A stretch of DNA of 32,602 nucleotides from Longimicrobiaceae bacterium (GTDB taxonomy: Bacteria > Gemmatimonadota > Gemmatimonadetes > Longimicrobiales > Longimicrobiaceae). This document shows, piece by piece, positions 6,857-22,047 of the stretch. The position numbers and the translations under genes were made by a program. The notes beneath the pieces were generated by a model, which worked only from the letters and a program-made list of their open reading frames with translations, was not told the DNA's origin and ran no database searches. The stretch's first letter is position 1, and the number at the start of each line of letters is the position of its first letter. The stretch lies in NCBI GenBank assembly GCA_036259415.1, contig DATABU010000225.1, forward strand, positions 1 through 32,602, in the 5' to 3' direction.

Positions 6857-7962
6857 GCGCGGTGCCGCGGAGCGGGAGCGTGGCCGGCCCGCCGGGCGGG
6901 GAGGTCCGCCGCGTCGAGCGCGTCCGGGAGGAGCTGCGGGCCCGGCCCCGCACCTGGCTCGTCACCGGCGCGGCGGGCTTCATCGGCTCGGCGCTGGTGG
7001 AGGCCCTCCTGGAGCTGGGCCAGTCGGTGGTGGGGATGGACAACTTCGCCACCGGCCACCGCCGCAACCTGGAGGAAGTGCGCGCGGGGGCGGGAGAGTC
7101 CGCCGGGCGGCTCCGCTTCGTCGAGGGCGACATCCGCGACCCCCGCGCCTGCCGGGATGCGTGCGCCGGGGTGGACGTGGTCCTCCACCAGGCCGCCCTC
7201 GGCTCGGTGCCGCGGTCGCTCGCCGACCCCGTGGCCACCAACCAGGTGAACGTGGACGGCTTCCTGAACGTGATCCTCGCCGCGCGCGAGGCCGGGGTGG
7301 GGCGCTTCGTCTACGCCGCGTCCAGCTCCACCTACGGAGACCACCCGGGCCTCCCCAAGACCGAGGGCGTCATCGGGCGGCCGCTCTCGCCGTACGCGGT
7401 CAGCAAGTACGTGAACGAGCTGTACGCCGGCGTCTTCCAGCGCGCATACGGGCTGGAGACCATCGGGCTGCGCTACTTCAACGTCTTCGGCCGGCGGCAG
7501 GACCCGGACGGCGCCTACGCCGCGGTCATCCCCCGCTGGGTGGGGAGCCTGCTGACGGGGCGGGAGTGCCGCATCAACGGCGACGGGGAGACGAGCCGCG
7601 ACTTCTGCTACGTGGACAACGTCGTGCAGGCGAACCTGCTGGCGGCGACCACGGACGACCCGGACGCCACCGACCAGGTCTACAACGTGGCGTGCGGGGA
7701 GCGGACCACGCTGAACGAGCTGTTCGCCGCCATCCGGGACGAGCTGGCGGTCGAGCGGCCGGAGCTGGCCTGCGCCGAGCCCGTCCACGGCGACTTCAGG
7801 GCCGCGGACATCCGGCACTCGCACGCCGACATCTCCAAGATCCGGTCGCGGCTCGGCTACCGCCCCACCCACCGGGTGCGGGAGGGGCTGCGCGAGGCGC
7901 TCGACTGGTACGTGGACTTCTTCTCCCGCGCGGAGCGGGAGGACCTGGCCCGGACGCCGTGA
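6853..7962 (+). CDS. wbpP: UDP-N-acetylglucosamine 4-epimerase (WbpP/TviC-type extended SDR)
   Basis: [12 protein letters not shown] Rossmann motif, [61 protein letters not shown] (YxxxK), [34 protein letters not shown]. These follow my recollection of WbpP along the whole length. The start overlaps the upstream stop (ATGA 6853-6856); GTG 6862 and 6880 are alternative starts. Confidence 0.8.
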
Positions 7963-8052
7963 GCCGGGCGTCCCGCAGGTATTCTGGACCTCATCCTGTC
8001 GCCGACCGGACCCGGGAGGGTGGCCGGTTCCCGACGCGTGCCTGGGAGTGAA

Positions 8053-9060
8053 ATGCTAGACAACAAGGTCGTTCTCGTCACCGGCGGAACCGGCTCGTTC
8101 GGGCAGCGGTTCATCGAGACGGTGCTGCAGCGGTACGAGCCCAAGAAGCTGATCGTCTTCAGCCGCGACGAGCTGAAGCAGTTCGAGATGCGGCAGCGGT
8201 TCCCCGAGCGGGTCTACGACAACATCCGCTACTTCATCGGGGACGTGCGCGACCGCGACCGCCTGTACCGCGCCTTCGACGGGGTGGACGTGGTCATCCA
8301 CGCCGCGGCGCTGAAGCAGGTGCCGGCTTGCGAGTACAACCCGCTGGAGGCGGTCAAGACCAACGTCCTGGGCGCCGCGAACATCATCGACGCGGCCATC
8401 GACCGGGACGTGAAGCAGGTGATCGCCCTCAGCACCGACAAGGCGTGCAACCCGGTGAACCTGTACGGGGCCACCAAGCTGTGCTCCGACAAGCTGTTCA
8501 CCGCGGCCAACAACTATTCCGGCCCGCACCGCACGCGGTTCAGCGTGGTGCGCTACGGGAACGTGGTGGGGAGCCGGGGGAGCGTGGTCCCCTTCTTCCT
8601 GAAGATGCGCGAGACGGGGGTGCTCCCCGTTACCGACGAGCGCATGACCCGCTTCTGGATCACGCTGGAGCAGGGGGTGGAGTTCGTGCTGCGCAGCCTG
8701 GAGCGGATGCAGGGCGGCGAGATCTTCGTCCCCAAGATTCCCAGCATGAGCATCATGGACCTGGCCCGGGCGGTCGCCCCCGAGTGCGAGACCCGCGTAG
8801 TGGGGATCCGGCCCGGCGAGAAGCTGCACGAGGTGATGGTGGCCGAGGACGACGCCCGCCACACGCTGGAGTACGAGGACTACTTCGCCATCCTCCCCTC
8901 CTTCGACGAGTGGGACCCGGTGGCGTACGGACGGCGCAACGGCGGGACGCACTGCCCGGAGGGGTTCCGCTACAGCAGCGAGACGAACACGCAGTGGCTC
9001 TCCGAGGCGCAGCTCCGGGAGATGATCGGGCTCGACGAGGCGCTCGTCGGTGTCGAGTAG
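8053..9060 (+). CDS. pseB: UDP-N-acetylglucosamine 4,6-dehydratase (inverting), PseB
   Basis: MLDNKVVLVTGGTGSFGQRF..., STDKACNPVNLYGATKLCSDKLF (YxxxK), RYGNVVGSRGSVVPFF, GEIFVPKIPS, PGEKLHE. Typical PseB/FlaA1/CapD short form. ATG 8053 is preceded by GGGAG; the track's GTG 8020 is a possible but less likely start. Confidence 0.88.
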   Translation: MLDNKVVLVTGGTGSFGQRFIETVLQRYEPKKLIVFSRDELKQFEMRQRFPERVYDNIRYFIGDVRDRDRLYRAFDGVDVVIHAAALKQVPACEYNPLEAVKTNVLGAANIIDAAIDRDVKQVIALSTDKACNPVNLYGATKLCSDKLFTAANNYSGPHRTRFSVVRYGNVVGSRGSVVPFFLKMRETGVLPVTDERMTRFWITLEQGVEFVLRSLERMQGGEIFVPKIPSMSIMDLARAVAPECETRVVGIRPGEKLHEVMVAEDDARHTLEYEDYFAILPSFDEWDPVAYGRRNGGTHCPEGFRYSSETNTQWLSEAQLREMIGLDEALVGVE

Positions 9061-10243
9061 CCTCGCGCTGGAGGGCGGGACGCCGGTCCGCTCGGAGGTG
9101 CTGCCGTACGGCCGGCAGTGGCTGGACGACGACGACGTGGAAGCGGTGGTCCGCGCGCTCCGCTCGGACTGGCTGACCACCGGCCCGCTGGTCCCGGAGT
9201 TCGAGCGGGCCTTCGCGGAGTCGGCGGGAGCGGCGGAGGCGGTGGCGGTGAGCAACGGCACCGCGGCGCTGCACGCGGCGATGCACGCGCTGGGCATCGG
9301 GCCGGGCGACGAGGTGATCGTCCCCGCCATGACCTTTGCGGCGAGCTCCAACTGCGTGGTCTACCAGGGCGGGACCCCGGTATTCGCGGACGTGGACCCG
9401 GGCACCCTGCTGGTCGACCCGGCGTCCGTGGAGGCGCGGATCACCCCCCGCACGCGGGCGGTGGTGGCGGTGGACTACGCCGGGCAGCCCTGCGATTACA
9501 AGGCGCTGCGCGCGCTCGCGGAGCGGCACGGGCTGGCGCTGGTGGACGACGCCTCGCACTCGGTGGGGGGGAGCGACCGGGGGCGCCCCGTCGGCTCGCT
9601 GGCCGACCTGAGCACCTTCTCCTTCCACCCGGTCAAGCACCTGACCACCGGCGAAGGGGGGATGGTCGCGACCGACGACGCCGAGCTCGCGCGGCGGATG
9701 CGGGTGTTCCGCAACCACGGGATCACCTCGGACCACCGGCAGCGGGCGGAGCAGGGCGGCTTCTTCTACGAGATGGTGGAGCTGGGGTACAACTACCGGA
9801 TCACCGACTTCCAGTGCGCCCTGGGGCTCAGCCAGCTCCGCAAGCTCCCGGCGTTCGTGCGCCGGCGGCAGGAGATCGCGGCCCGCTACGACGCCGCCCT
9901 CGCCGCCGTCCCCGCCGTGCGCCCGCTGGCGGTCCGGCCGGGCGTGTCGCACGCCTACCACCTGTACACGGTGCTGCTGGACACCGGCCGGCTCTCCGCC
10001 GACCGGGCCGCGGTGTTCGCCGCGCTTCGCGCCGAGGGGATCGGGGTGAACGTGCACTACATCCCCGTGCACCTGCACCCGTTCTACCGGGAGCGGTTCG
10101 GCACGGGACCGGGGACGTGCCCGGTGGCGGAGGACGCCTACGAGCGGCTCGTCACCCTCCCCATGTTCCCGCAGATGACGGACGGCGACGCGGACGACGT
10201 GGTCGCCGCCGTCGTCAAGGTGGCGGAGCGCTTCGCGGCCTGA
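9050..10243 (+). CDS. pseC: UDP-4-amino-4,6-dideoxy-N-acetyl-beta-L-altrosamine transaminase, PseC (DegT family)
   Basis: LPYGRQWLDDDDVEAVVRALRSDWLTTGP N-terminus typical of PseC. PLP-lysine context FSFHPVKHLTTGEGG. NYRITDFQCALG. Sits immediately after pseB with an 11-nt overlap. Confidence 0.85.
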   Translation: MSSSLALEGGTPVRSEVLPYGRQWLDDDDVEAVVRALRSDWLTTGPLVPEFERAFAESAGAAEAVAVSNGTAALHAAMHALGIGPGDEVIVPAMTFAASSNCVVYQGGTPVFADVDPGTLLVDPASVEARITPRTRAVVAVDYAGQPCDYKALRALAERHGLALVDDASHSVGGSDRGRPVGSLADLSTFSFHPVKHLTTGEGGMVATDDAELARRMRVFRNHGITSDHRQRAEQGGFFYEMVELGYNYRITDFQCALGLSQLRKLPAFVRRRQEIAARYDAALAAVPAVRPLAVRPGVSHAYHLYTVLLDTGRLSADRAAVFAALRAEGIGVNVHYIPVHLHPFYRERFGTGPGTCPVAEDAYERLVTLPMFPQMTDGDADDVVAAVVKVAERFAA

Positions 10244-10248
10244 CGCGC

Positions 10249-11166
10249 GTGGGCCCGCCGCTTCACCTCCTGGCCGACGCCACGCCCGAGTGCGGCGCGG
10301 GGCACGCGATGCGCCTGGCGAGCCTCGCCGAGGAATGGGCCGCCGGGGCGGGCGGCGTGGTGCGCCTCGCCGGCGAGGTGTCCATCCCCTTCGTGCGGGA
10401 ACGGCTCGCCGCGGCCGGCGTACGGGTGGAGGCGTCGGGTGCCGGGCCGCTCCCGGGCGCGGTGCTGGTGGCCGACAGCTACGACGCCGGGCGCCGTCGG
10501 CAGGGAGCCGGGGCGCCCGGCGCCGCGCTCCGCGTGCTGGTGGACGACCTGGGCGGGGAGGTCCCGGCGGGGTACGACGCCGTCTGGAACCCGAGCGCCT
10601 GCGCCACCCCCGCGCTCTACCCCGGCTTCGCGGGCGAGGTGCTGGCGGGGGCTGCCTTCGTCCCGGTGCGGACCGGCCTCCCCCCGTGGCGGCCGTGCGG
10701 CCCCGGCACCACCGCGGTGATGCTGGGCGGCGGGGACGTCCCGCCCCACCTCCGCGACGCGCTCGGGAGGCTGGCGGCTGAGCTCGGGGAGGCGCGCTTC
10801 CGGGGCGTGGGGGGCTGGACTCCCCCGGGCTGGGGCGGCATCCCGGCGTCGGACCCGTGGCGGGAGGTCTCCGGCTGCGGGGTGCTGGTGACGGCGTCCG
10901 GATCGTCTGTGTGGGAGGCGGCCGCTGTCGGGATCCCCATGGTGGTGGTGAAGACCGCCGCGAACCAGGAGCGGGTGTTCCGCTGGGCCGTGGAGTCCGG
11001 CGCCCCGGGGGTGGACGCGACTTCGCTGCGCGACCCGGCCGCGCTCGCCCGCGCCCTGGGGGAGGCGCACGGCCGGGCGGCCCCGCTCCCGCGGATCCGG
11101 CCGGGCGGGGCGCACGTCGCCCGGACCCTGCGGGCGCTGGCGGCGCGCCGGGGAGCGGGGGCGTGA
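10249..11166 (+). CDS. pseG: UDP-2,4-diacetamido-2,4,6-trideoxy-beta-L-altropyranose hydrolase, PseG-like (GT28-like fold)
   Basis: This is the C-terminal 305 codons of the artefactual 9118-11166 ORF. GTG 10249 gives VGPPLHLLADATPECGAGHAMRLASLAEEW, matching the PseG N-terminal G-x-GH-x-x-R pattern. C-terminal VLVTASGSSVWEAAAVGIPMVVV nucleotide-sugar-binding strand. Position between pseC and pseH. The exact start is uncertain. Confidence 0.7.
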   Translation: MGPPLHLLADATPECGAGHAMRLASLAEEWAAGAGGVVRLAGEVSIPFVRERLAAAGVRVEASGAGPLPGAVLVADSYDAGRRRQGAGAPGAALRVLVDDLGGEVPAGYDAVWNPSACATPALYPGFAGEVLAGAAFVPVRTGLPPWRPCGPGTTAVMLGGGDVPPHLRDALGRLAAELGEARFRGVGGWTPPGWGGIPASDPWREVSGCGVLVTASGSSVWEAAAVGIPMVVVKTAANQERVFRWAVESGAPGVDATSLRDPAALARALGEAHGRAAPLPRIRPGGAHVARTLRALAARRGAGA

Positions 11167-11639
11167 CGGCTCCGCTCCGGGTCGTCCCCGCCGCGGCCGG
11201 CGACGCCTACGCGCTCTGGCTCTGGGCGAACGACGCGGGGACCCGCGCGGCCTCGTTCGGGCGCGATCCCATCGCCTGGGCCGATCACGTCGCCTGGCTG
11301 GAGCGCGCGCTCGCCGACGCCGCGCACGCGGTGCTGGTCGCGCGGAGCGCGGACGGGCGCCCGGTGGGGTCGATCCGCTTCGACACCGGGGACGGCTGGC
11401 GCACCGCCCGGCTCAGCTACGTGGTCGCGCCGGAGGCGAGGGGCGAAGGGCGCTCCGGGCCGATGGTGCGCGCGGGCGTGGCGTGGGTCCGCGGCGCCCA
11501 CCCCGGCGTGGCGGTGCGGGCCCGGGTGATGGAGGCCAACGAGCGGTCGCTGCGGGTGTTCCGGAGGCTCGGGTGGAGGGAGGAGCGGGCGGAGGAGGGG
11601 GTGAGGGAGTTCTGGTCCCGGGAGACGGGCGTGGAGTGA
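11163..11639 (+). CDS. pseH: GNAT N-acetyltransferase, PseH-like (assigned mainly by position)
   Basis: GTG 11163 overlaps the pseG stop (GTGA). About 158 aa. GNAT core (VAPEARGEGRSGPMV, ANERSLRVFRRLGW). Located between pseG and pseI, as in many pse operons. Confidence 0.6.
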   Translation: MTAPLRVVPAAAGDAYALWLWANDAGTRAASFGRDPIAWADHVAWLERALADAAHAVLVARSADGRPVGSIRFDTGDGWRTARLSYVVAPEARGEGRSGPMVRAGVAWVRGAHPGVAVRARVMEANERSLRVFRRLGWREERAEEGVREFWSRETGVE

Positions 11640-11641
11640 GG

Positions 11642-12694
11642 ATGGAGATCCAGATCAACGGCCGGAGCGTCGGCCCCGGGTACCCGGCGTACCTGGTGGC
11701 CGAGCTCTCCGGGAACCACAACGGCGACCTGCAGCGCGCGCTCGACACCGTCCACGCCGCGGCGGAGGCCGGGGCGGACGCGATCAAGCTGCAGACGTAC
11801 ACCGCCGACACGCTGACCATCGACTGCGGCAGCGGGCTCTTCGTCGTGCCCGGCGACGGCCCCTGGGGCGGACGGACGCTGTACCAGCTCTACCGGGAGG
11901 CGCACACCCCGTGGGACTGGCACGCGCGGCTCTTCGATGAGGCCCGCTCGTGCGGGATCGACGTGTTCTCCACGCCCTTCGACGCCACGGCCGTGGAGCT
12001 GCTGGAGGAGCTGGGCGCGCCGGTGCACAAGGTCGCCTCGTTCGAGCTGGTGGACGACGACCTGCTGCGGGCGGTCGGGCGCACGGGGAAGCCCGTGGTG
12101 CTCTCCACCGGCATGGCCAGCCTGGAGGAGATCGCCCACGCGGTGGACGTGCTGCGGGGCGCCGGCTGCGAGCAGGTGCTGCTGCTGCGCTGCACCAGCA
12201 GCTACCCGGCCCCGGACGCGTCCATGAAGCTGGCGACCCTCCCGGTGCTGGCGCAGGCGACCGGGTGCCCGGTGGGCCTCTCGGACCACAGCCTGGGCAC
12301 CACCGCCCCGGTGGTCGCCGTGACCCTCGGCGCCTGCTTCGTGGAGAAGCACTTCACGCTCGACCGGGCCGACGGCGGGGTGGACAGCCACTTCTCGCTG
12401 GAGCCGGCGGAGTTCCGCGCCCTGGTGGACGACGTGCGGCGCGCCGAGGCCATGATCGGCACGGCGGGCTTCGGGCCGGGCGTCGCCGAGGAGGGGAGCA
12501 CCGTGTTCCGCCGCTCCCTGTTCGTGGTGCGGGACCTGGCGCCGGGCGAAGAGCTCACCCGCGAGAGCGTGCGGTCCATCCGCCCCGGCTACGGGATGTC
12601 GCCCCGGTTCCTGGACGTGGTGCTCGGCAAGCGAGCGGCCCGGGCGATCCCCCGCGGGACGCCGCTCACCTGGGACCTGGTGGGCGGTGGCTGA
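11642..12694 (+). CDS. pseI: Pseudaminic acid synthase, PseI (NeuB family with C-terminal SAF domain)
   Basis: ATG 11642, 2 nt after the pseH stop. MEIQINGRSVGPGYPAYLVAELSGNHNGDLQRALDTVHAAAEAGADAIKLQTYTADTLT, STPFD, VHKVASFEL, GLSDHSLG, VEKHFTLDR. SAF-like tail FRRSLFVVRDLAPGEELT...IRPGYGM. Confidence 0.88.
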   Translation: MEIQINGRSVGPGYPAYLVAELSGNHNGDLQRALDTVHAAAEAGADAIKLQTYTADTLTIDCGSGLFVVPGDGPWGGRTLYQLYREAHTPWDWHARLFDEARSCGIDVFSTPFDATAVELLEELGAPVHKVASFELVDDDLLRAVGRTGKPVVLSTGMASLEEIAHAVDVLRGAGCEQVLLLRCTSSYPAPDASMKLATLPVLAQATGCPVGLSDHSLGTTAPVVAVTLGACFVEKHFTLDRADGGVDSHFSLEPAEFRALVDDVRRAEAMIGTAGFGPGVAEEGSTVFRRSLFVVRDLAPGEELTRESVRSIRPGYGMSPRFLDVVLGKRAARAIPRGTPLTWDLVGGG

Positions 12695-12713
12695 GCCCGG
12701 CGCCGCGCGCGGG

Positions 12714-13562
12714 ATGGAGCGGGTCGTCCTGGGGACGGTGCAGCTCGGCCTCCCCTACGGGGCGCGGGCGGGCGCGGGGACGATGCCGGAGCACGCCGCG
12801 CGGGCCGTGCTGGACGCGGCCTGGGCGCTGGGGATCCGCGCCTTCGACACCGCCGAGGCGTACGGGGAGTCCGCCGCGCGGCTGGAGCGCTGGCTGCGCG
12901 GGCGCGGGGTCGCCGGCGAGGCGCACGTGGTCACCAAGGTGAAGCCCGGCGAGGGGCCCGGGATCGGCGGCCGGGTGGAGCGGGCGCTGGCGCGCTTCCC
13001 CGACGCGGCGAGCCGGACGCTCCTCACGCACGGCGGGGCCGGAGGGCGGGAGTGGGAGGAGGCCGCGGCGGCCGCGCGGGCCTGTGACGCGGCGGCCGGG
13101 CAGAGCGTCTACGGCCGCGACGGGGTGGAAGCCGCGGTCGCCTGCGCGGGGGTGGAGCGGGTGCAGGCCCCCGGCAACCTGTTCGACCTGGGGGCGCTGG
13201 CCGGGCGTGCCGGCGCCCCCGTGGCGCTGGACCTCCGCTCGGTGTACCTCCAGGGGCTGCTCGCCTCGCCGCCCGCCGCCGCCGAAGCCAGGGTCCCCGG
13301 GGCGGGAGCGTTGGCGGGTGCGGTCGCCGCGGCGGCGGCCGGGGTGGGGGAGGAGCCCGCCGCGCTGCTCTGCGCCGTGGTGCTGGGGGCGTGCCGCCGC
13401 GGCGACCGGCTGGTGGTCGGGGTGGACGCCCCGGAGCAGCTCGCGCCCGTGGCGCGGGCGGTCTCGCTCGACCCGCCCACTGTCCAGGCGTTCGCGCGCG
13501 CGGCGCGGGAGGCCGTGGCGGGTCCGGTGGACCCCCGCGTCCTCGATCCGCGACGCTGGTGA
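12714..13562 (+). CDS. Aldo/keto reductase family oxidoreductase
   Basis: MERVVLGTVQLGLPYG...AVLDAAWALGIRAFDTAEAYGESAARLERWL shows the AKR D-x-A-x-x-Y-G signature region. ATG 12714 chosen; GTG 12687, overlapping the pseI end, is the alternative. The C-terminal half is Ala-rich and less diagnostic. Confidence 0.65.
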   Translation: MERVVLGTVQLGLPYGARAGAGTMPEHAARAVLDAAWALGIRAFDTAEAYGESAARLERWLRGRGVAGEAHVVTKVKPGEGPGIGGRVERALARFPDAASRTLLTHGGAGGREWEEAAAAARACDAAAGQSVYGRDGVEAAVACAGVERVQAPGNLFDLGALAGRAGAPVALDLRSVYLQGLLASPPAAAEARVPGAGALAGAVAAAAAGVGEEPAALLCAVVLGACRRGDRLVVGVDAPEQLAPVARAVSLDPPTVQAFARAAREAVAGPVDPRVLDPRRW

Positions 13563-13602: not shown

Positions 13603-15669
13603 ATGCCGATGTCCAGGACCGTAGCGGTGATCCAGGCGCGGACCTCGTCCACGCGACTCCCCCGGAAGGTGCTCGCGCCCGTCGGGCCGGTCACCCTGGT
13701 CGAGCGGCTGGTCCGGCAGCTCGGCGGCGCCCGGGAGCTGGACGCGGTCGTGGTGGCCACCTCCGCCGACCCCAGCGACGACGAGCTGGCCGCGCACCTG
13801 GAGGCGGCGGGGGTCCCCGTCTACCGCGGCGAGCTGGACGACGTGCTGGCGCGCTTCGCCGGCGCCGCCCTGTCGCACGGGGCGGAGGTGGTGGTCCGGC
13901 TCACCGGCGACTGCCCGCTGCACACGCCGGACACCGTGGACGAGGTGGTGGCCGCCTTCCGCGCGTCGGGCGCGGACTACGCGTCGAACGTGGACCCGTA
14001 CACGCGGCCCGACGGGCTGGACGTGGAGGTGTTCCACCGCGGCGCGCTGGAGCGGGCGCTGCGCGAGGCGCAGCCGGGGCCCGACCGCGAGCACGTCACC
14101 CCCTGGCTCCGCCGCTCGGAGGCCGTGCGCAGACACGCGCACCTGCACCGTGACGGGCTGGGCGGCGAGGGGCTCCGCTGGACGGTGGACGAGCCCGCGG
14201 ACCTGGAGTACGTCCGCCGCGTCTGGGCGAGACTGGACGAGATCGGGGCGCAGCCCCACAGCTACGAGACCATCATGAAGGCAGCCCTGGAAGTCGGAGC
14301 GCGCGACGGCGCCGACATCTCCAACCGGGGATACTACAGGTCCCTGTTCGAAGCCGCCGCCGGCGAAGCGGCCCCGCCGCTCCGGCTGGAGCGCAGCGAG
14401 GAGCTGCTGCGGCGCAGCGCCGCGGTGGTGCCCGGCGGCGCCCAGACCTACTCCAAGAGCTGGCGCCAGCACATCCGCGGGGTGTCGCCGGTGTTCCTGG
14501 AGCGCGGCGAGGGGGCCCGCGTCTGGGACGTGGACGGCAACGAGTACGTGGACCTCGTCCAGGGGCTCCTCCCCAACGTGCTGGGGTACGCCCACCCGGA
14601 AGTGGACCGCGCCGCCTACGAGCGGGCCCGGCGGGGGCACTCGTTCTCGCTGGCGCACCCGCTGGAGGTGGAGCTGGCCGAGCGCCTGGTCCGGCTGATC
14701 CCCTGCGCCGAGATGGTGCGCTTCGGGAAGAACGGCTCCGACGCCACCGCGGGGGCGGTGCGCGTCGCGCGGGCCTTCACCCGGCGGGACCGGGTGGCGA
14801 CCTGCGGCTACCACGGCTGGCAGGACTGGTTCATCGGCACCACCTCGCGCACGGCGGGGGTCCCGGAGGCGGTCCGCGAGCTGGCGCACCCCTTCCCGTA
14901 CGACGATCTTGAGGCGCTGGACCGGCTCCTCTCGGCGCACCCGGGCGAGTTCGCCGCGGTGATCATGGAGCCGTTCAACTTCTTCCCGCCGGCGGAGGGC
15001 TACCTCCAGGGGGTCAGGGAGCTGGCGCACCGGCACGGGGCGCTGCTCATCTTCGACGAGATCTGCACCGGCTTCCACATGGGGCTGGGCGGGGCGCAGA
15101 AGATGTTCGGGGTCCTCCCCGACCTCGCCACCTTCGGCAAGGCGATGGGGAACGGCTACCCCATATCCTGCATCGTCGGCAGGCGGGACGTGATGCAGAC
15201 GTTCGACGACGTGTTCGTCTCCTTCACCTTCGCCGGCGACGTGGCCGCGATGGCGGCGGCGATGGCGGTGCTGGACGTGCTGGAGCACACCGACGCGCTG
15301 CCGCGCATGCACGCGGCCGGGCGCAAGCTGGCCGACGGCGCCCACGCGCTGGCCGCCGAGGCGGGGCTCGGCGACCGCTTCCGCACGCACGGGCACCCCG
15401 CCTGGACGCTGCTGCGCTTCCTGGACGCCGGGGGCGCGGACGACCCCGTCCTCAAGACGCTCTGGTCGCAGGAGGTCGTGCGGCGCGGCGTGCTGGTGCT
15501 CGCCACCCACAACGTGTGCGCGGCGCTGGACTACGCGGCCGTGGAGCACGTGCTGCGGGCCTACGCCGAGGCGTTCCGGTTCGTGGGGCGGCTCGCGGCC
15601 GAGGGGGCCGACCTCGCCGCGTACCTGGACGGTCCGGTGCCCTCGCCCGCCTTCCGCGCCCGGGGCTGA
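13603..15669 (+). CDS. Fusion protein: N-terminal SpsF/COG1861-type cytidylyltransferase domain plus C-terminal class-III (GSA-aminomutase-like) PLP aminotransferase domain
   Basis: ATG 13603 inside the artefactual 13084-15669 ORF. N-domain VAVIQARTSSTRLPRKVLAPVG...VVVATSADPSDDELA...VYRGELDDVLARF...RLTGDCPL...YASN. After about 250 aa comes VVPGGAQTYSKS...FLERGEGARVWDVDGNEYVDL...GKNGSDATAGAVRVARAFT...IFDEICTGFHMG...DLATFGKAMGNGYP (PLP lysine). One uninterrupted frame. Confidence 0.8.
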   Translation: MPMSRTVAVIQARTSSTRLPRKVLAPVGPVTLVERLVRQLGGARELDAVVVATSADPSDDELAAHLEAAGVPVYRGELDDVLARFAGAALSHGAEVVVRLTGDCPLHTPDTVDEVVAAFRASGADYASNVDPYTRPDGLDVEVFHRGALERALREAQPGPDREHVTPWLRRSEAVRRHAHLHRDGLGGEGLRWTVDEPADLEYVRRVWARLDEIGAQPHSYETIMKAALEVGARDGADISNRGYYRSLFEAAAGEAAPPLRLERSEELLRRSAAVVPGGAQTYSKSWRQHIRGVSPVFLERGEGARVWDVDGNEYVDLVQGLLPNVLGYAHPEVDRAAYERARRGHSFSLAHPLEVELAERLVRLIPCAEMVRFGKNGSDATAGAVRVARAFTRRDRVATCGYHGWQDWFIGTTSRTAGVPEAVRELAHPFPYDDLEALDRLLSAHPGEFAAVIMEPFNFFPPAEGYLQGVRELAHRHGALLIFDEICTGFHMGLGGAQKMFGVLPDLATFGKAMGNGYPISCIVGRRDVMQTFDDVFVSFTFAGDVAAMAAAMAVLDVLEHTDALPRMHAAGRKLADGAHALAAEAGLGDRFRTHGHPAWTLLRFLDAGGADDPVLKTLWSQEVVRRGVLVLATHNVCAALDYAAVEHVLRAYAEAFRFVGRLAAEGADLAAYLDGPVPSPAFRARG

Positions 15670-15694
15670 CCCGGCGCGGGGAGGCGCATCCATC

Positions 15695-16951
15695 GTGTTC
15701 GCAGGAGTGACCGAAGTGTACCACGGCAGCCAGGCGGCGGAGAACGGCGGGAGCGGCGCGGCGGGAACGGCGGGGCGCGGGATCCCGCTCCCGGTGCTCC
15801 GGCTCACCCGCTGCACCCGGTGCGGCCTCCCCGAGACGTACGAGACCATCGAGTTCGACTCGGCCGGCGTGTGCAACATCTGCCGGCAGAAGGAATACCG
15901 GGACAGCGCGATCGACTGGGACGAGCGCAGGCGCCGGCTCGACGCGCTGATCGCCGAGTACCGCGGCAAGCACGAGTACGACTGCATCGTCCCCTTCTCG
16001 GGGGGAAAGGACTCCACCTACACCCTGTACTACCTGGTGAAGGAGTACGGGATCAAGCCGCTGGTGGTGCAGTTCAACCACGGCTTCATGCGCCCGAAGC
16101 TGCGCGAGAACAACGAGCGCACCTTCCGCGAGCTGGGGGTGGACGTGATCTCCTTCACCCCCAACTGGAAGGTGGTGAAGCGGCTCATGCTGGAGGCGCT
16201 CGTCCGCAAGGGCGACTTCTGCTGGCACTGCCACACGGGGATCTTCTCCTATCCCATGCACGTGGCGCTCAAGTACAACACGCCGCTCATCTTCTGGGGC
16301 GAGCCGTCGTCGGAGTACACCGCGTACTACGACTACAAGGACGACCAGATCGAGGAGGTGGACGAGACCCGCTTCAACCGCTTCGTCAACCTGGGGATCA
16401 CCGCCGAGGACATGGCCGGGATGATCTCCGGCGACTTCCCGCTGGACCCGCGCGACCTGGCGCCGTTCACCTACCCGTCCGTGCGCGACCTGCGGCGTCT
16501 CCGCTACCGCTCCGTCTGCCTGGGCTCATTCGTCCCCTGGGACGTGAAGCGCAACGTGGAGCTGATCCGGCGCGAGCTGGGCTGGGAGGGCGACCGGGTG
16601 GAGAACATGCCGTTCGACCGCTACCCGTACGAGAAGATCGAGTGCTGGGTGCAGGGGGTGCGCGACTACATCAAGTACCTCAAGCGGGGCTACAGCCGGG
16701 TGACGCAGATGACGGCGCTCGACCTCCGCAACGGCCGCATCGGCAAGGAGGAGGCGGAGCGGCTCATCGCCGAGCACGAGGGGAAGCGGCCGCCGTCGCT
16801 CGACCTGTTCCTGGGCTACGTGGGGCTCACCGAGGACGAGTTCAACCGCATCGTCCTGAAGACGGTGGTCCCGCCCTTCGAGCCGGACTTCTCCGCCATC
16901 GAACCGGGCGAGAAGCTCCCCGACTTCGGCGCCTGGTACCGGGAGCGATGA
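15695..16951 (+). CDS. N-acetyl sugar amidotransferase (PP-loop ATP-pyrophosphatase; WbuX/WbpG/PseA family)
   Basis: Zinc-ribbon CTRCGLPETYETIEFDSAGVCNICRQ, PP-loop CIVPFSGGKDSTY, FCWHCH. Followed directly by HisH-like and HisF-like genes. GTG 15695 is provisional; downstream GTGs are possible starts. Confidence 0.82.
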   Translation: MFAGVTEVYHGSQAAENGGSGAAGTAGRGIPLPVLRLTRCTRCGLPETYETIEFDSAGVCNICRQKEYRDSAIDWDERRRRLDALIAEYRGKHEYDCIVPFSGGKDSTYTLYYLVKEYGIKPLVVQFNHGFMRPKLRENNERTFRELGVDVISFTPNWKVVKRLMLEALVRKGDFCWHCHTGIFSYPMHVALKYNTPLIFWGEPSSEYTAYYDYKDDQIEEVDETRFNRFVNLGITAEDMAGMISGDFPLDPRDLAPFTYPSVRDLRRLRYRSVCLGSFVPWDVKRNVELIRRELGWEGDRVENMPFDRYPYEKIECWVQGVRDYIKYLKRGYSRVTQMTALDLRNGRIGKEEAERLIAEHEGKRPPSLDLFLGYVGLTEDEFNRIVLKTVVPPFEPDFSAIEPGEKLPDFGAWYRER

Positions 16952-17577
16952 CCGCGCCGCGGGTCGGGATCCTCAACCTGGAGATGGGGAACCTGCGCTC
17001 CGTCTCCAACGCGGTGTACAGCCTGGGGTGGGACCCCGAGCTGGTGGACGCGCCGGGAGCCCTGGACGACCTCACCCACCTGATCATTCCGGGGGTGGGC
17101 GCCTTCCACACCGCCATGCGGCGGATCGAGGAGAAGGGGCTGCGCGAGCCGGTGCGCGCCTACGCGTCCACGGGGCGCCCGCTGCTCGGGCTCTGCCTGG
17201 GGATGCAGCTGCTCGCCACCACCGGCGAGGAGGGCGACCCCACCCCGGGGCTGGGGCTGGTCCCCGGCCACGTGGAGCGGCTGCGCGCGGACCTCGTCCC
17301 CGCCATCCCCCACGTGGGGTGGAACTCCATGGAGCTGCGGCGCGACCACCCCGTCCTGCGCGGCGTGCGCAGCGGGGTTGACTTCTACTTCGTGCACTCG
17401 TACCGCTTCGCGCCCGACTCGCCGGACGACGTGGTGGGGAGCACCGAGTACGGGCAGGTCTTCGCCTCCGGCGTGGGCCGCGGCAACGTCGTGGGCTTCC
17501 AGTTCCACCCGGAGAAGAGCCAGGCCAACGGGCTGCGGCTGATCGACAACTTCTGCGCCTGGGACGGGCGGTGCTGA
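16948..17577 (+). CDS. hisH: Glutamine amidotransferase subunit, HisH paralogue (WbuY-type)
   Basis: ATG 16948 overlaps the upstream stop (ATGA). VGILNLEMGNLRSVSNAV, IIPGVGAF, LLGLCLGMQLL (nucleophile Cys), HVGWN, YFVHSY, GFQFHPEKS. Its context argues for a sugar-amidation paralogue rather than histidine biosynthesis. Confidence 0.85.
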   Translation: MTAPRVGILNLEMGNLRSVSNAVYSLGWDPELVDAPGALDDLTHLIIPGVGAFHTAMRRIEEKGLREPVRAYASTGRPLLGLCLGMQLLATTGEEGDPTPGLGLVPGHVERLRADLVPAIPHVGWNSMELRRDHPVLRGVRSGVDFYFVHSYRFAPDSPDDVVGSTEYGQVFASGVGRGNVVGFQFHPEKSQANGLRLIDNFCAWDGRC

Positions 17578-18335
17578 AGCGGCGCATCATCCCCGTCCAG
17601 CTCCTGGTGGGCGGGCGCCTGGTGAAGACGGTGCGGTTCGGCGCCTACCGCGACGTGGGGGACCCCGTCGCCTCGTCCAAGGTCTACAACGCGCAGAACG
17701 CGGACGAGCTGGTCTTCCTGAACATCGACCGGGAGGACCGCTCCGTCGAGCCCATGCTCCGCCTGCTGGAGCGGGTGTCGGAGGAGGTGTTCATGCCGCT
17801 CGCGCTGGGCGGGGGGATCGGCTCCGTGGACGACGCGTCGCGGCTGATCCGCGCCGGCGCCGACAAGGTGGTGGTCAACTCCGCCGCCTACCGCGACCCG
17901 GGCCTGCTGCGGGCGATCGCCGACCGCTTCGGCGCGCAGGCGGTGGTGGTGGGGATCGACGTGCGCCGCGAGGGCGCGGACGGCGGGTGCGTCCTGTACT
18001 CGGACTGCGGCCGCAGGCGGGAGGCGGTGGGGCTGGACGAGCACGTTGAGCGGGTGGTGGAGCACGGGGCGGGGGAGATCCTGGTCAACTCCATCGACCG
18101 CGACGGGACGATGGAGGGGTACGACCTGGAGCTCGTCCGCCGGGTGGTGGAGCGCTCTCCGGCGCCGGTGATCGGGTGCGGCGGGGCGGGGCACTACAAC
18201 CACCTGAAGGCGGGGTTCCTGGAGGCCGGGGCGAGCGCCCTCGCCTGCGGGAGCCTCTTCAACTTCGGGGACAACAACCCGATCCGCGCCAAGGCGTTCC
18301 TGACCAACTACGGGATCCCCTTCAAGGTGGTCTAG
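17571..18335 (+). CDS. hisF: Cyclase-like subunit, HisF paralogue (WbuZ/HisF2 acetamidino-modification type)
   Basis: GTG 17571 with a 7-nt overlap on hisH. LKRRIIPVQLLVGGRLVKTVRF...GDPV...ADELVFLNI...PLALGGGI...GADKVVVNSAA...SIDRDGTMEGYDL...GGAG. Confidence 0.85.
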   Translation: MLKRRIIPVQLLVGGRLVKTVRFGAYRDVGDPVASSKVYNAQNADELVFLNIDREDRSVEPMLRLLERVSEEVFMPLALGGGIGSVDDASRLIRAGADKVVVNSAAYRDPGLLRAIADRFGAQAVVVGIDVRREGADGGCVLYSDCGRRREAVGLDEHVERVVEHGAGEILVNSIDRDGTMEGYDLELVRRVVERSPAPVIGCGGAGHYNHLKAGFLEAGASALACGSLFNFGDNNPIRAKAFLTNYGIPFKVV

Positions 18336-18340
18336 GCCGA

Positions 18341-18874
18341 ATGAAGAGCCGCTTCATCGCCGGAGAGCGGGTCCACCTGCGCGAGGTGCGCCCCAGCGAC
18401 GTGGGCGAGGCGTACTACGCCTGGATGAACGACCCCGAGGTGACGCGCTACCTGGAGAGCCGCTTCTACCCGCAGTCGCTGGAGGGGCTGCGGGAGTTCG
18501 TGGCGGGGAAGCTGGGCGACCGCGCGAGCGTGTTCCTGGCGATCGTCCTGCACGACGGCGACCGGCACATCGGCAACATCAAGCTGGGGCCGATCGACTG
18601 GATCCACCGGACCGGCGACGTCGGCCTGCTGATCGGCGAGAAGGACTGCTGGGGGAAGGGATACGCCTCCGAGGCGATCTCGCTGGTGGCCGGCTACGCC
18701 TTCGGCACGCTGAACCTGCGCAAGCTGACCGCCTCCTGCTACGGCGGCAACGAGGGCTCGGTGCGCGCGTTCCAGCGGGCGGGGTTCGAGGTGGAGGGGG
18801 TCCGTCGCGGGCAGTTCTACTCCGACGGCGAATACGTGGACCAGATACTCCTCGGGCGCCTGCGCCCGGAGTGA
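18341..18874 (+). CDS. GNAT family N-acetyltransferase (RimJ/RimL-like)
   Basis: ATG 18341. MKSRFIAGERVHLREVRPSDVGEAYYAWMNDPEVTRYL, IGNIKLGPIDWIHRTGDVGLLIGE..WGKGYASEA, GNEGSVRAFQRAGFEVEG. Confidence 0.8.
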   Translation: MKSRFIAGERVHLREVRPSDVGEAYYAWMNDPEVTRYLESRFYPQSLEGLREFVAGKLGDRASVFLAIVLHDGDRHIGNIKLGPIDWIHRTGDVGLLIGEKDCWGKGYASEAISLVAGYAFGTLNLRKLTASCYGGNEGSVRAFQRAGFEVEGVRRGQFYSDGEYVDQILLGRLRPE

Positions 18875-18888
18875 GAGCGGAGCTGAAG

Positions 18889-20169
18889 ATGGCGGAGCTG
18901 GCGATCCTGGGCGGCGAGCCCGTCCTCCCGAACCCCCTGCGTCCCTACCGCACCATGGGGGCGGCGGAAGCCGAGGCGGTGAAGCGCGTGGTGGAGTCCG
19001 ACTGCCTCTCGGGCTTCTACGGGAGCGCGGGAGACCAGTTCCTGGGCGGCCCCCGGGTGAAGGAGTTCGAGGCGGCCTGGAGCGCGCGCTTCCGGGTGCG
19101 GCACACCGTCTCGGTGAACTCCGCCACCTCGGGGCTGTACGCGGCCATGGGCGCCATCGGCATCCGGCCCGGCGACGAGGTGATCGTGCCGCCGCTCACC
19201 ATGTCGGCCACCGCCATGGCGCCGCTGGTGTACGGCGGCGTCCCCGTCTTCGCGGACGTGGAGCCGGAGACCTTCTGCCTGGACGTGGACGCCGTGCGCC
19301 GGGCGATCACCCCGCGCACCCGCGCCATCCTAGCCGTGAACCTCTTCGGCCACCCCGCGCCGCTGGTCCGCCTGCGCGCCCTGGCCGACGAGCACGGGAT
19401 CAAGCTGGTGGAGGACAACGCGCAGGGGCCGCTCGCGAGCGAGGACGGCCGCCACGCCGGCACCATCGGGCACGTCGGGGTGTTCAGCCTGAACTATCAC
19501 AAGCACATCCACACCGGCGAGGGCGGGATGTGCGTGACCGACGACGACGACCTCGCGCTGCGCATGCAGATGATCCGCAACCACGCGGAGAACGTGGTGG
19601 AGGCGTACGACGTGCAGGACCTCACCAACCTGGTGGGCTTCAACTACCGTCTCACCGAGCTGAGCGCCGCGGTGGGGCTGGAGCAGCTCCGCCGCATCGA
19701 CGAGCACGTCGGCCCGCGGGTGCGTCTGGCGGAGACGCTCACGGCCATGACGGAGGACCTGGAGGGGATCACCCCGCCGCGCGTGCGCCCGGGGTGCACC
19801 CACGCGTACTACGTGTGGGCCTTCCGCCTGGACGAGGAGGCGGCCGGGGTGAGCCGGGAGGCGTTCAGCCGCGCCCTGGCGGCCGAGGGCTTCCCCCACG
19901 GCGCCGGCTACGTGCGCCCGCTCTACCTGCTCCCCCTCTTCCAGCGCCGCCCGGAGGAGTCGGGGGTGTTCGGGAGCGCGCTGGCGGCCGGCCGGTACCC
20001 GGCGGGGCTGTGCCCCGTGGCGGAGCGGCTGCACCGGAGCGAGCTGCTCCTGTTCGAGACCTGCGCCTACGACGTGGACGCCCGCACGGCCGGGCTGCTG
20101 GGCGAGGCGGTCCGCAAGGTCCACGCGAACCGCGGGGCGCTGGCGGAGCTCGCCCCGGCGGGGGTCTGA
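18889..20169 (+). CDS. DegT/DnrJ/EryC1/StrS family sugar aminotransferase (second copy in the locus)
   Basis: MAELAILGGEPV..., VNSATSGLYAAMGAIGIRPGDEVIVPPLT, PLP-lysine context FSLNYHKHIHTGEGG, NYRLTELSAAVG. ATG 18889 chosen; GTG 18871 (GTGA overlap with the GNAT stop) is the alternative. Confidence 0.82.
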   Translation: MAELAILGGEPVLPNPLRPYRTMGAAEAEAVKRVVESDCLSGFYGSAGDQFLGGPRVKEFEAAWSARFRVRHTVSVNSATSGLYAAMGAIGIRPGDEVIVPPLTMSATAMAPLVYGGVPVFADVEPETFCLDVDAVRRAITPRTRAILAVNLFGHPAPLVRLRALADEHGIKLVEDNAQGPLASEDGRHAGTIGHVGVFSLNYHKHIHTGEGGMCVTDDDDLALRMQMIRNHAENVVEAYDVQDLTNLVGFNYRLTELSAAVGLEQLRRIDEHVGPRVRLAETLTAMTEDLEGITPPRVRPGCTHAYYVWAFRLDEEAAGVSREAFSRALAAEGFPHGAGYVRPLYLLPLFQRRPEESGVFGSALAAGRYPAGLCPVAERLHRSELLLFETCAYDVDARTAGLLGEAVRKVHANRGALAELAPAGV

Positions 20170-20172
20170 GCG

Positions 20173-20913
20173 GTGCCCCGCGTCGTCGCCTCCATCGAAG
20201 CGCGGATGGGCTCGTCCCGGCTCCCGGGGAAGGTGCTGATGGACGTGGGCGGGGTGCCTGCGCTGACGCGGCTGGTGCGGCGGCTGCGCCGGTGCGAGAC
20301 GCTGGACGGCATCGTCCTGGCCACCTCCACCTCTCCCGCTGACGACGCGCTGGAGGCGTGGGCCGGGGCCGAGGGGGTGCCGGTCCACCGCGGCAGCGAG
20401 GACGACGTGCTGCTCCGGGTGGTGGAGGCGCAGCGGAAGATGGACTCCGACGTGGTGGTGGAGGTCACCGGCGACTGCACGCTGCTGGACCCCGAGCTGG
20501 TGGACGTGGGGGTGCGCACCTTCCTGGAGAACGACTGCGACGTGGTCCACAACGTCCGCGACCTGTCGTTCCCCATGGGGATGGACGTGCAGGTCTTCCG
20601 CCTCCGCGACCTGGAGGAGGTGGAGCGCACGGTGGACGACCCGGCCGTGCGGGAGCACGTCTCCCTGCACTTCTACGAGCACCCGGAGCGCTACCGCGCC
20701 TTCCAGCTCTTCGCGCCGCGCCGCTGGCGCGCGCCGGACTACCGCTTGCAGCTCGACTACCCGGAGGACCTGCGCTTCATCCGCGAGGTGTACGCGCGGC
20801 TGGAGCCGGAGCACGGCGACGCCTTCGGGATCGAGGAGATCATGGCGCTGCTGCGCGCCGAGCCCGCGCTGGCGGAGATCAACCGCCACTGCGAGGAGAA
20901 GGCGGCCCGGTGA
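20173..20913 (+). CDS. SpsF/COG1861-type cytidylyltransferase-like protein (stand-alone paralogue of the N-domain of 13603-15669)
   Basis: GTG 20173. VVASIEARMGSSRLPGKVLMDVGG...IVLATSTSPADDALE...VHRGSEDDVLLRV...EVTGDCTL aligns block for block with the N-domain of the fusion ORF. Confidence 0.8.
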   Translation: MPRVVASIEARMGSSRLPGKVLMDVGGVPALTRLVRRLRRCETLDGIVLATSTSPADDALEAWAGAEGVPVHRGSEDDVLLRVVEAQRKMDSDVVVEVTGDCTLLDPELVDVGVRTFLENDCDVVHNVRDLSFPMGMDVQVFRLRDLEEVERTVDDPAVREHVSLHFYEHPERYRAFQLFAPRRWRAPDYRLQLDYPEDLRFIREVYARLEPEHGDAFGIEEIMALLRAEPALAEINRHCEEKAAR

Positions 20914-20919
20914 GCGGCA

Positions 20920-20959
20920 GGTTCGGCGCGAGGACGGTCCGGTCCGGTCGGTTCGGCGC
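20920..20959. repeat. Short direct repeat GGTTCGGCGC (x2, 30 bp apart) flanking an imperfect GGTCC pentamer run
   Basis: GGTTCGGCGC occurs at 20920-20929 and 20950-20959. GGTCC GGTCC GGTCG GTTCG runs at 20936-20955. It lies in the 115-bp gap before 21029, one of the larger intergenic gaps inside the locus. Confidence 0.3.
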
Positions 20960-21028
20960 TCTCGGGCGGGCGCGGCAAGCACCCGTCGGCCCGCGGGCGC
21001 AGGCGATCCACCTCCACCCCTCAGGACG

Positions 21029-21985
21029 ATGAACGCATCCCCCACCCAGCAGCGTGCCCCGGGACGGTTCTCGCCGGCACGGATCCGCAGAGGGGTCTCC
21101 AGCCGCCTCACCACCTACGTGGGGGGCGTGCAGGCGATCCTCCCGAAGCTCATCTACGGGAACTCCGCCGGGTTCCGGAACAACCGCGAGCCGGTGCGGC
21201 AGCTTCGCGAGTTCCAGGAGGAGTTCGCGCGGCGCGGCAACGCGGTTCCGGGGGAGCCGTACGCCTCGGCCGCCCGCTCCCTGCGGGAGAACGGCTACCT
21301 CGTGATGGAGCGGCGGTACGCCGGCCCGGAGTTCGAGGCCATGCGGGCACGCTACGCCGAGCTGATGGAGGACCCGGACCGGTCCGTCGCCACGCCGAAC
21401 GGGGCCACCCGCTTCATCGTGGAGCCCGTGGCCGGGATCCCCGAGCTCCGGCACCTGCTGACCGAGGAGCTGGAGCGGACGCTCGTGGCGTACTACGGCA
21501 CGTACTTCCGGATCGAGGGCGTGCGCGCCTGGCGGAACCACCACGTCCCCAGCGTGTCGATGACGGACGACGTGTTCTCCAACACGTTCCACTGCGACGC
21601 CTTCCCGGTGACGGGGCTCCGGCTCTTCGTGTACTTCAACGACGGCGTGAACCGCGAGACCGGGGCGTTCCGCTTCCACGACAAGCGGAACACCAAGCGG
21701 ATCATCCGCTCCCCCGGGTACTTCCGGCGCAACCTCCTGAGCCGCTCCGTCAAGCAGCGGCTCCTGGACCCGCAGCAGCTGCACTTCCTCGAAGGCGACG
21801 CGGGGGCGAGCATGCTGTGCAACGTGCAGGAGTGCCTGCACGCGGCCGGAGTCCCGCGCGAGGGGTCCCACCGCGATATCTTGCAGCTCCTGATCGCGCC
21901 CTCGAACGAGCCGTACCGCGAGCGTGGAGAGCTGTTCGACCGGATCCCGGCGGACCGGGAGGTCCTGGCCATGCGCGGCGCATAG
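21029..21985 (+). CDS. Hypothetical protein, probable Fe(II)/2-oxoglutarate oxygenase (PhyH-like cupin)
   Basis: ATG 21029. HxD facial-triad candidate FHCD, followed by LRLFVYFNDGVNRETGAFRF (like the PhyH xxLDDxxxENGxL strand). Distal His and Arg candidates in NVQECLHAAGVPREGSHRD. No other family is recognised. Pattern-based call only. Confidence 0.5.
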   Translation: MNASPTQQRAPGRFSPARIRRGVSSRLTTYVGGVQAILPKLIYGNSAGFRNNREPVRQLREFQEEFARRGNAVPGEPYASAARSLRENGYLVMERRYAGPEFEAMRARYAELMEDPDRSVATPNGATRFIVEPVAGIPELRHLLTEELERTLVAYYGTYFRIEGVRAWRNHHVPSVSMTDDVFSNTFHCDAFPVTGLRLFVYFNDGVNRETGAFRFHDKRNTKRIIRSPGYFRRNLLSRSVKQRLLDPQQLHFLEGDAGASMLCNVQECLHAAGVPREGSHRDILQLLIAPSNEPYRERGELFDRIPADREVLAMRGA

Positions 21986-22047
21986 GTGCCGCAGCTCCCG
22001 CGCCGGCCACTCCGCACCGGTCCTCCTCACCCGGGCTCCCTCGTACC

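Follow-up and report, generated by a model that had tools for sequence, protein, structure and literature searches.

A gene at positions 13603-15669 of a 32,602-nucleotide stretch of DNA from a Longimicrobiaceae bacterium (contig DATABU010000225.1 of assembly GCA_036259415.1; the whole stretch is called the window here) was found to encode a cytidylyltransferase (CT) fused to a class-III aminotransferase (AT), inside a cluster of genes for pseudaminic acid (Pse), a sialic-acid-like sugar of the cell surface. At a probability of roughly 45%, we favour a bifunctional enzyme of tailoring and activation: the CT would make cytidine monophosphate (CMP)-Pse, and an oxidoreductase encoded nearby would, together with the AT, oxidise and then aminate the sugar. 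In loci that encode NeuB-type synthases, evolution has kept CT and AT closely tied to a single oxidoreductase, which may have any of three folds. We infer that the fusion belongs to a variant Pse pathway whose tailoring module follows a known chemical logic.

The fusion gene and its two halves

The frame was translated without a stop over 688 codons, as an earlier sequence-only reading of this DNA had described; the public gene call (P0002) starts two codons downstream, at 13609, and gives 686 amino acids (aa). Both superfamilies proposed in that reading were recovered above their Pfam cut-offs, CTP_transf_3 (PF02348) at residues 7-177 (79.1 bits; cut-off 22.6) and Aminotran_3 (PF00202) at residues 296-587 (179.5 bits; cut-off 30.5). 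The motifs IQARTSSTRLPRKVL, TGDCPL and FGKAMGNGYP were located in the fusion as quoted, and the residues R13, R18, K22, D103 and K513 within them did not vary in any of the 30 fused homologues aligned. The same held, in fused proteins down to 37% identity, for the full sets of CT catalytic residues (R13, R18, K22, D103, D196 and D200) and AT residues (K513, D485, G378, D380 and T382). When proteins from loci with separate genes were aligned to the fusion, the stand-alone CT covered residues 3-248 and the stand-alone AT residues 261-687, so that the gene joins two complete enzymes end to end. The G+C content of the window was ~73%, and the codon-position G+C pattern of the fusion frame was that of the neighbouring genes. 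An AlphaFold model built from the 30-protein alignment had a mean pLDDT of 88.4 and a pTM of 0.87, with pLDDT values of 91-94 in the blocks of 10 residues that span the linker and its flanks (241-270). Foldseek searches with the whole model returned single-domain aminotransferases only (TMq ~0.53, AT half covered) and no two-domain analogue.

Such a gene could be produced by an assembly or sequencing error, if an indel had joined two neighbouring genes. One indel could suffice, as illustrated by a split locus (L020) in which the stop of the CT overlaps the start of the AT, and the source genome is fragmented (887 contigs, 75% complete). However, PF02348 and PF00202 were found together in 120 of the 120 best protein relatives (60-86% identity, ~685 aa), many of which carry the JGI name 'glutamate-1-semialdehyde 2,1-aminomutase/spore coat polysaccharide biosynthesis protein SpsF'. 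The fusion of CTP_transf_3 and Aminotran_3, for which a query of domain architectures had been suggested earlier, is neither rare nor new; the architecture is already common in public databases, and the window gene adds another member to a family that is still uncharacterised. A genome scan gave 596 stretches encoding relatives, and all locus counts here rest on the best 80 loci (81 with the window). The fused state was called by checks of frame and stops; a tblastn map alone overcounted fusions. CT and AT shared one stop-free frame in 15 of the 80 loci, in addition to the window, and these 15 belong to Acidobacteriota, Verrucomicrobiota, Chloroflexota, Ignavibacteriota and Pseudomonadota.

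The junction was checked for frameshifts on contigs of public runs (contigs rather than raw reads). A contig from X1, the probable source sample, covered 13603-14549 with 1 difference and 0 gaps. A 2096-base contig from X2, a soil metagenome of a different study, covered 13609-15407 with 160 differences (~91% identity over 1.8 kb); its indels were confined to a compensating +1/-1 pair at 13804/13809, the junction was free of indels and the frame was kept. Runs X3 and X5 gave short, patchy pieces, which carry no weight as evidence. The linker and both termini were conserved across the 30 aligned fused proteins. With a frame-keeping contig from another study, the fusion in relatives of several phyla and a conserved linker, the artefact explanation is refuted for practical purposes. 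Loci L018-L030 and the Ignavibacteriaceae loci, drawn as fusions on the tblastn map, proved on frame and stop checks to hold adjacent separate genes. Weak PF00535 labels were seen on two homologues (P0076 and P0121).

Judged by its sequence, the C-terminal half is a class-III (fold type I) pyridoxal phosphate (PLP) aminotransferase that is similar in fold to glutamate-1-semialdehyde aminomutase (GSAM) and is not a GSAM. Solved GSAM structures were its closest solved relatives (~1e-64) and the top Foldseek matches, and K513, D485, G378, D380 and T382 aligned with the matching GSAM residues. We take K513 to be the Schiff-base lysine, D485 to face the pyridine nitrogen and G378/D380/T382 to lie in the phosphate-binding G-S/T-x-A-T stretch. 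The general likeness to GSAM claimed in the sequence-only reading thus stood, whereas membership of that family did not: all curated GSAM models scored below cut-off (TIGR00713 hemL, 240.7 vs 527.3 bits; PRK00062, 265.2 vs 398; PRK06209, the best NCBIfam match, 392.2 vs 486; PRK12389, 234.1 vs 637). The genome encodes its own HemL separately (609.1 bits, contig C564). Against this HemL, 11 of 11 aligned members (the window and ten relatives, from both clades of the AT tree described below) had a 9-residue deletion (5 + 4) at FLVKAGSGVATLGLP and a 4-residue deletion that removes FEAG, and carried a C-terminal extension. We take these two HemL stretches to be the active-site lid loop of GSAM and the Glu that excludes oxo-acids, and presumably they are what makes GSAM a mutase. 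Other solved relatives were transaminases with sugar or polyketide aldehydes or ketones as their substrates (C-6' aminotransferases of aminoglycoside pathways, FumI and PctV); a '6'-epimerase, C-6' aminotransferase' (9au3), isoleucine 2-epimerase and amino-acid racemases were also returned. If the reading favoured here is right, a 'GSA aminomutase' encoded beside an SpsF-type CT and a NeuB-type synthase should be annotated as not a haem enzyme.

The N-terminal half had as its best solved structure an uncharacterised 'Cytidylyltransferase' (6oew, 4.8e-23), followed by CMP-Kdo synthetases, and its stand-alone relatives (~255 aa, 45-59% identity) carry the JGI name SpsF. It has the features of the PF02348 type (KdsB/NeuA/SpsF), with a profile score above the gathering score and an Arg/Lys loop, GD-x-P and D-x-x-x-D present; the R13/R18/K22 loop, GD-x-P (D103) and D-x-x-x-D (D196, D200) are presumably its catalytic motifs. 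The cluster resembles the canonical CMP-Pse pathway of Campylobacter and Helicobacter (PseB/C/H/G/I/F) in that PseB, PseC and PseI were matched above cut-off and PseG-like and PseH-like proteins are present (Table 1). It differs in having no PseF and, in its stead, an SpsF-type CT fused to the AT, plus an aldo-keto reductase (AKR). The N-terminal half had no match to the PseF model TIGR03584 (cut-off 205.7 bits) at E <= 1e-5. The sole TIGR03584 match in the window's own genome (75% complete) was below cut-off (46.2 bits) and on another contig, with none in the cluster, and PseF was above cut-off in 0 of 6 genomes tested. In three of these (G002, G004, which is a complete chromosome, and G005), the only clear PF02348 matches were the SpsF-like CT and one of 175-189 bits (a 248-301-aa frame), the latter taken here as KdsB.

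Two compact operons have the order PseB-PseC-AKR-CT-AT-PseG-PseI and no PseF, with separate genes in L020 (Alcaligenaceae) and with CT and AT fused in L002 (Verrucomicrobiales). Their gene order matches that of the canonical pathway, with the three genes inserted between pseC and pseG, which is where pseF lies in many canonical operons. Because of these operons and of the tested genomes without PseF, the N-terminal half is most likely a CMP-pseudaminate synthetase standing in for PseF, an assignment we hold fairly secure from gene context and the genetics of homologues. For the latter, published reports describe Caulobacter FlmC as a cytidylyltransferase without PseF homology that completes a six-gene Pse pathway and glycosylates flagellin in Escherichia coli (PMC7591256), and a Bacillus subtilis spsF mutant in which legionaminic acid is made and accumulates and is not transferred to the spore (PMC7439481). 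The SpsF names of the relatives, the spsF genetics and the flmC reconstitution fit a CMP-activating role. B. subtilis SpsF and Caulobacter crescentus FlmC differ from the fusion in being single-domain proteins, and the accessible text of neither paper mentions a class-III aminotransferase partner. A Vibrio SpsF::AKR fusion has been proposed as a NeuA replacement (PMC7371886), and the lipopolysaccharide cluster of Legionella pneumophila serogroup 6/12 is described as holding the same gene set as separate genes (PMC3694923). If correct, the assignment accounts for the many Pse clusters without pseF.

Alternatively, AKR, AT and CT could form a branch of their own that yields an amino compound activated with CMP or CDP for addition to the glycan (an amino-alcohol phosphate, say, like those found in phosphonate or serinol decorations), with the second CT in the window activating Pse. 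Fusions of nucleotidyltransferases to aminotransferases occur in phosphonate pathways, two CTs are encoded in the window, and the N-terminal half gave a weaker second match to NTP_transf_3 (PF12804, 39.4 bits). The PF02348 score is, however, twice that of PF12804, and CMP-Kdo synthetases come next after 6oew. The compact operons have this CT alone and no PseF, three comparison genomes have no other candidate CMP-Pse synthetase, and a NeuB-family gene was present in the analysed DNA of 68 of the 81 loci. We give this branch a low probability.

Partner oxidoreductases and distribution

Frames running from stop to stop were mapped in the window and in the other 80 loci with phmmer seeds. Of these 81 loci, 69 encode an oxidoreductase no more than 3 kb from the AT: a short-chain dehydrogenase/reductase (SDR) in 36, a Gfo/Idh/MocA enzyme (GFO) in 17 and an AKR in 16. 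In 0 of the 81 were two kinds present within that distance. A CT was found in 65 of the 81 (63 by phmmer and 2 by Pfam). Pfam scans also identified triple fusions of two kinds: GFO::CT::AT proteins of 1029-1057 aa in Terriglobales (L001, L006 and L010), and AKR::CT::AT proteins of 979 aa with the AKR N-terminal (P0006 and P0049). CT-GFO-AT runs of genes were present in Hyphomicrobiales (L079) and in an archaeal locus (L016). The AKR tetrad (Asp-Tyr-Lys-His; D54, Y59, K84 and H115) was invariant in 6 of 6 aligned partners, and AKR partners in L020, L027 and L002 matched the KidO-like model NF011432 below its cut-off.

PseI and the AKR lie directly upstream of the fusion, as the sequence-only reading had said in describing a module of AKR and fusion behind pseI. 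An AKR is not always part of this module: three oxidoreductase families stand in for one another, and GFO or SDR enzymes take its place elsewhere. The interchange of the three folds and the two kinds of triple fusion argue clearly for a single redox step that is coupled to a single transamination.

A quick FastTree phylogeny of 78 AT domains, with local support values only, was made after three partial or frameshifted rows (L005, L014 and L031) had been dropped. It separated a Pse-type clade of 36 rows, 15 of them fused, from a second clade of 42 rows with 0 fused. The fused state requires at least 3 changes on this tree. The functional link that had been argued from the fusion gained from this recurrence and from the existence of both triple fusions, and the families that had been named as separate neighbours elsewhere (CT, AT, AKR and a NeuB-type synthase) were seen as such in the split loci. 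The window AT fell in an 11-row clade that is all fused and spans four phyla, which suggests on tree evidence that the locus has moved horizontally. A full-length fused match was present in 4 of 151 sampled genomes of the window's phylum, so the fusion is an accessory gene there.

In the second clade, 39 loci, mostly of Bacteroidota and Ignavibacteriota, had an SDR directly 3' of the AT and a NeuB-like gene beyond. In 28 of these, CT and AT were separated by a transketolase, which in most was divided into N and C parts. The order (L039-L080; for example L070, 6948-13166) was SpsF-like CT, transketolase, AT, SDR and NeuB-like synthase. In L070, the sole locus of this clade that was scanned with Pfam, the synthase had no SAF domain and was followed by a gene of the fatty-acid-hydroxylase family. 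From its gene content, the clade appears to specify the synthesis of some other, unknown amino-ulosonic acid.

Individual loci carried further genes. In the compact operon of L020, a FemAB-family protein (14655-15743; TIGR04421, above cut-off) is encoded directly 3' of PseI; presumably such proteins transfer aminoacyl groups, and this one could attach amino acids to free amines. In L024 (Magnetococcales, 6132-11278), CT, AT and oxidoreductase genes are interleaved with genes for xylose-isomerase-like TIM-barrel and radical SAM/SPASM proteins, with an ATP-grasp ligase downstream.

Proposed pathway

In the favoured pathway, the N-terminal half would replace the absent PseF and convert Pse and CTP to CMP-Pse. 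The AKR (a GFO or SDR enzyme in other lineages) would turn a free hydroxyl of this nine-carbon sugar into a ketone. The most likely site, judged from the oxidation of CMP-legionaminic acid that has been proposed for ElaA, is C8, and the alternative is C4. The C-terminal half would then transaminate the ketone to give a 5,7,8-triamino-type (or 4-amino) nonulosonate. Oxidation and amination could occur either after CMP activation (as in ElaABC) or before it (as for Kdo8N). The fusion and the triple fusions would hold the three activities together, and channelling between amination and nucleotide activation, raised in the sequence-only reading, may occur.

For ElaABC of Acinetobacter baumannii KL49, it has been proposed that a CT (ElaB) and a GFO enzyme (ElaA) give CMP-8-keto-legionaminic acid and that an SDR then converts this to the 8-epimer by reduction; the reactions were proposed from structures and docking, not assayed (PMC13656337). 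As described there, a CT works with a GFO oxidoreductase in a proposed C8 oxidation of a CMP-sugar, and the best solved neighbour of the GFO domain of the triple fusions, 3ezy, is the one named for ElaA (PMC13656337). The third enzymes differ: in 8-epi-legionaminic acid synthesis, on the same account, an SDR reduces the ketone back to the epimer, whereas the fusion loci have a PLP aminotransferase. With an aminotransferase in place of the Ela reductase, an 8-amino sugar would result. No ElaABC-type set (CT, GFO and SDR in one locus) was seen among the loci, none of which encodes more than one kind of oxidoreductase within 3 kb of its AT. ElaA and ElaB structures were absent from the results of the solved-structure searches made with the GFO domain and the CTs.

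Oxidation followed by transamination on an ulosonic acid is also the logic of the Shewanella Kdo8N pathway, in which an oxidase and an aminotransferase act on Kdo before cytidylylation. That pathway differs in its eight-carbon sugar, its unrelated gene context and the lack of a fusion. An 8-amino nonulosonate occurs in the O-antigen of Flexibacter maritimus and Kdo8N in Shewanella (PMC3210612). A paper on the Tenacibaculum maritimum O-antigen lists aminotransferase, oxidoreductase and acetyltransferase genes and, in the part available, names no class-III enzyme or cytidylyltransferase; it gives no link either way (PMC9796276).

A bolder and more doubtful extension is that CT, AT and oxidoreductase form a route to 8-amino (5,7,8-triamino) nonulosonic acids, as one channelling complex acting on the CMP-activated sugar, and that carriers in soil, freshwater and the archaea display amino-rich, sialic-acid-like sugars that have barely been sampled. 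The second CT-GFO-DegT-GNAT module of the window would then add and acetylate another nitrogen. If true, genes would be assigned to 8-amino nonulosonates, a known sugar type that is a genetic orphan. Nonulosonic acids decorate flagella, capsules and O-antigens, and it is by their substituents that phages, lectins and antibodies recognise them.

Several observations weigh against the pathway favoured here. Two of the five comparison genomes (G001 and G003) have a NeuA-like gene elsewhere, which scored 166-175 bits for PseF, below cut-off. The second SpsF-like CT in the window could be the true CMP-Pse synthetase of this cluster. The tie of the N-terminal half to B. subtilis SpsF and Caulobacter FlmC is drawn from JGI names and the descriptions in the papers. 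AKRs are usually reductases, and an oxidative role would be assumed for this one from its interchange with GFO enzymes. In 12 of the 81 loci no oxidoreductase lay within 3 kb; most of these were on short or cut contigs, and in L027 (Paenibacillus thalictri N2SHLJ1) and L029 an AKR was found at 3.9 and 8.2 kb. A literature search for biochemistry of the three enzymes together, with most subscription journals outside its reach, found no assay.

The same genes might serve stereochemistry: like its GSAM or PLP-epimerase relatives, the AT would shift or invert an amino group that is already in place (the later N7 or N5, not yet acylated), and the oxidoreductase would reset a neighbouring centre, giving a Pse stereoisomer and no triamino sugar. 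That the nearest solved relatives of the AT are aminomutases, with class-III epimerases and racemases among the solved matches, is consistent with this, and ElaABC illustrates that a CT and redox enzymes can serve epimerisation. Yet ElaABC takes two redox enzymes and no PLP enzyme, whereas one oxidoreductase within 3 kb of the AT fits oxidation plus transamination. The deletions at FLVKAGSGVATLGLP and FEAG are shared by all aligned family members, and they fall in the stretches that presumably make GSAM a mutase. A stereochemical function is, in our estimate, unlikely.

Tailoring might also come earlier, with oxidoreductase and AT modifying the six-carbon precursor (or an acyl group) before the condensation with phosphoenolpyruvate by PseI, and the CT activating only the final product. 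The second clade points that way, as its AT stands among enzymes that resemble precursor builders, upstream of a NeuB-like gene (39 SDR loci, 28 with transketolase). The position in the window, with the three activities encoded directly 3' of pseI, is uninformative on the order of reactions. By contrast, the covalent link joins the AT to the last enzyme of the pathway, the CT, and not to PseG, PseH or PseI, and on chemical reasoning the hydroxyls of the precursor are needed for ring closure and condensation. We consider tailoring of the precursor distinctly improbable.

The surrounding cluster

Genes around the fusion are listed in Table 1. The order upstream is Wzz-like, TviC-like epimerase, PseB, PseC, PseG-like, PseH-like, PseI and AKR; 3' of the fusion follow a WbuX/HisH/WbuZ set, the second CT module, and methyltransferases with a flippase.

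Table 1. Features of the window, with positions counted from its first nucleotide.
Feature	Position	Strand	Basis
Wzi-like capsule-assembly domain with C-terminal LysM, 671 aa	52-2067	-	at edge of polysaccharide cluster
pseB	8020-9060	+	TIGR03589, 549.3 bits, above cut-off
pseC	9050-10243	+	TIGR03588, 471.6 bits, above cut-off
pseG-like, divergent	10243-11166	+	TIGR03590, 34.8 bits, C-terminal part only, far below cut-off
pseH-like GNAT, divergent	~11100-11639	+	TIGR03585, 26.4 bits, far below cut-off; GNAT Pfam matches
pseI	11483-12694 (longest open reading frame; family match from residue 69)	+	TIGR03586, 455.6 bits (cut-off 340.25); NeuB and SAF domains
AKR, KidO-like subgroup	12687-13562	+	PF00248, weak, 37.3 bits, residues 13-88 only
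CT-AT fusion gene	13603-15669	+	single open frame, 688 codons, stop-free translation
N-terminal half, SpsF-named CTP_transf_3 CT	13603-14346 (residues 1-248)	+	PF02348
Linker, Ala/Pro/Glu-rich, ~12 residues	14347-14382 (residues 249-260)	+	gap between alignments of split CT and split AT
C-terminal half, class-III PLP AT	14383-15669 (residues 261-688 and stop)	+	PF00202
WbuX-type	15695-16951	+	TIGR03573, 337.6 bits
HisH-type	16951-17577	+	TIGR01855, 209.2 bits
WbuZ(HisF)-type	17571-18335	+	TIGR03572, 266.2 bits, below cut-off 299.7
Second module	18176-23444	+	GNAT 18176-18874; DegT aminotransferase 18871-20169; second SpsF-like CT 20173-20913
Second module, rest		+	unknown protein, 318 aa, 21029-21985; Gfo/Idh/MocA oxidoreductase 21924-23444

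The second module had been left unconnected to the fusion in the sequence-only reading. From its predicted enzymes it looks like a second oxidise-aminate-acetylate unit, which gives two CTs for one PseI. Its CT matched 6oew at 1e-30, and in a Coriobacteriia locus (L030) a CT-GFO-DegT-GNAT set likewise lies 3' of PseI. The WbuX/HisH/WbuZ set was read as acetamidino-forming (the NCBIfam names are N-acetyl sugar amidotransferase and glycosyl amidation), and in five loci (L027, L029, L032, L034 and L079) it is accompanied by the same GNAT as that at the start of the second module. Among relatives, PseG was encoded in a ~500-aa frame, of which the C-terminal part matches PseH in L019, and two PseG matches were present in L015.

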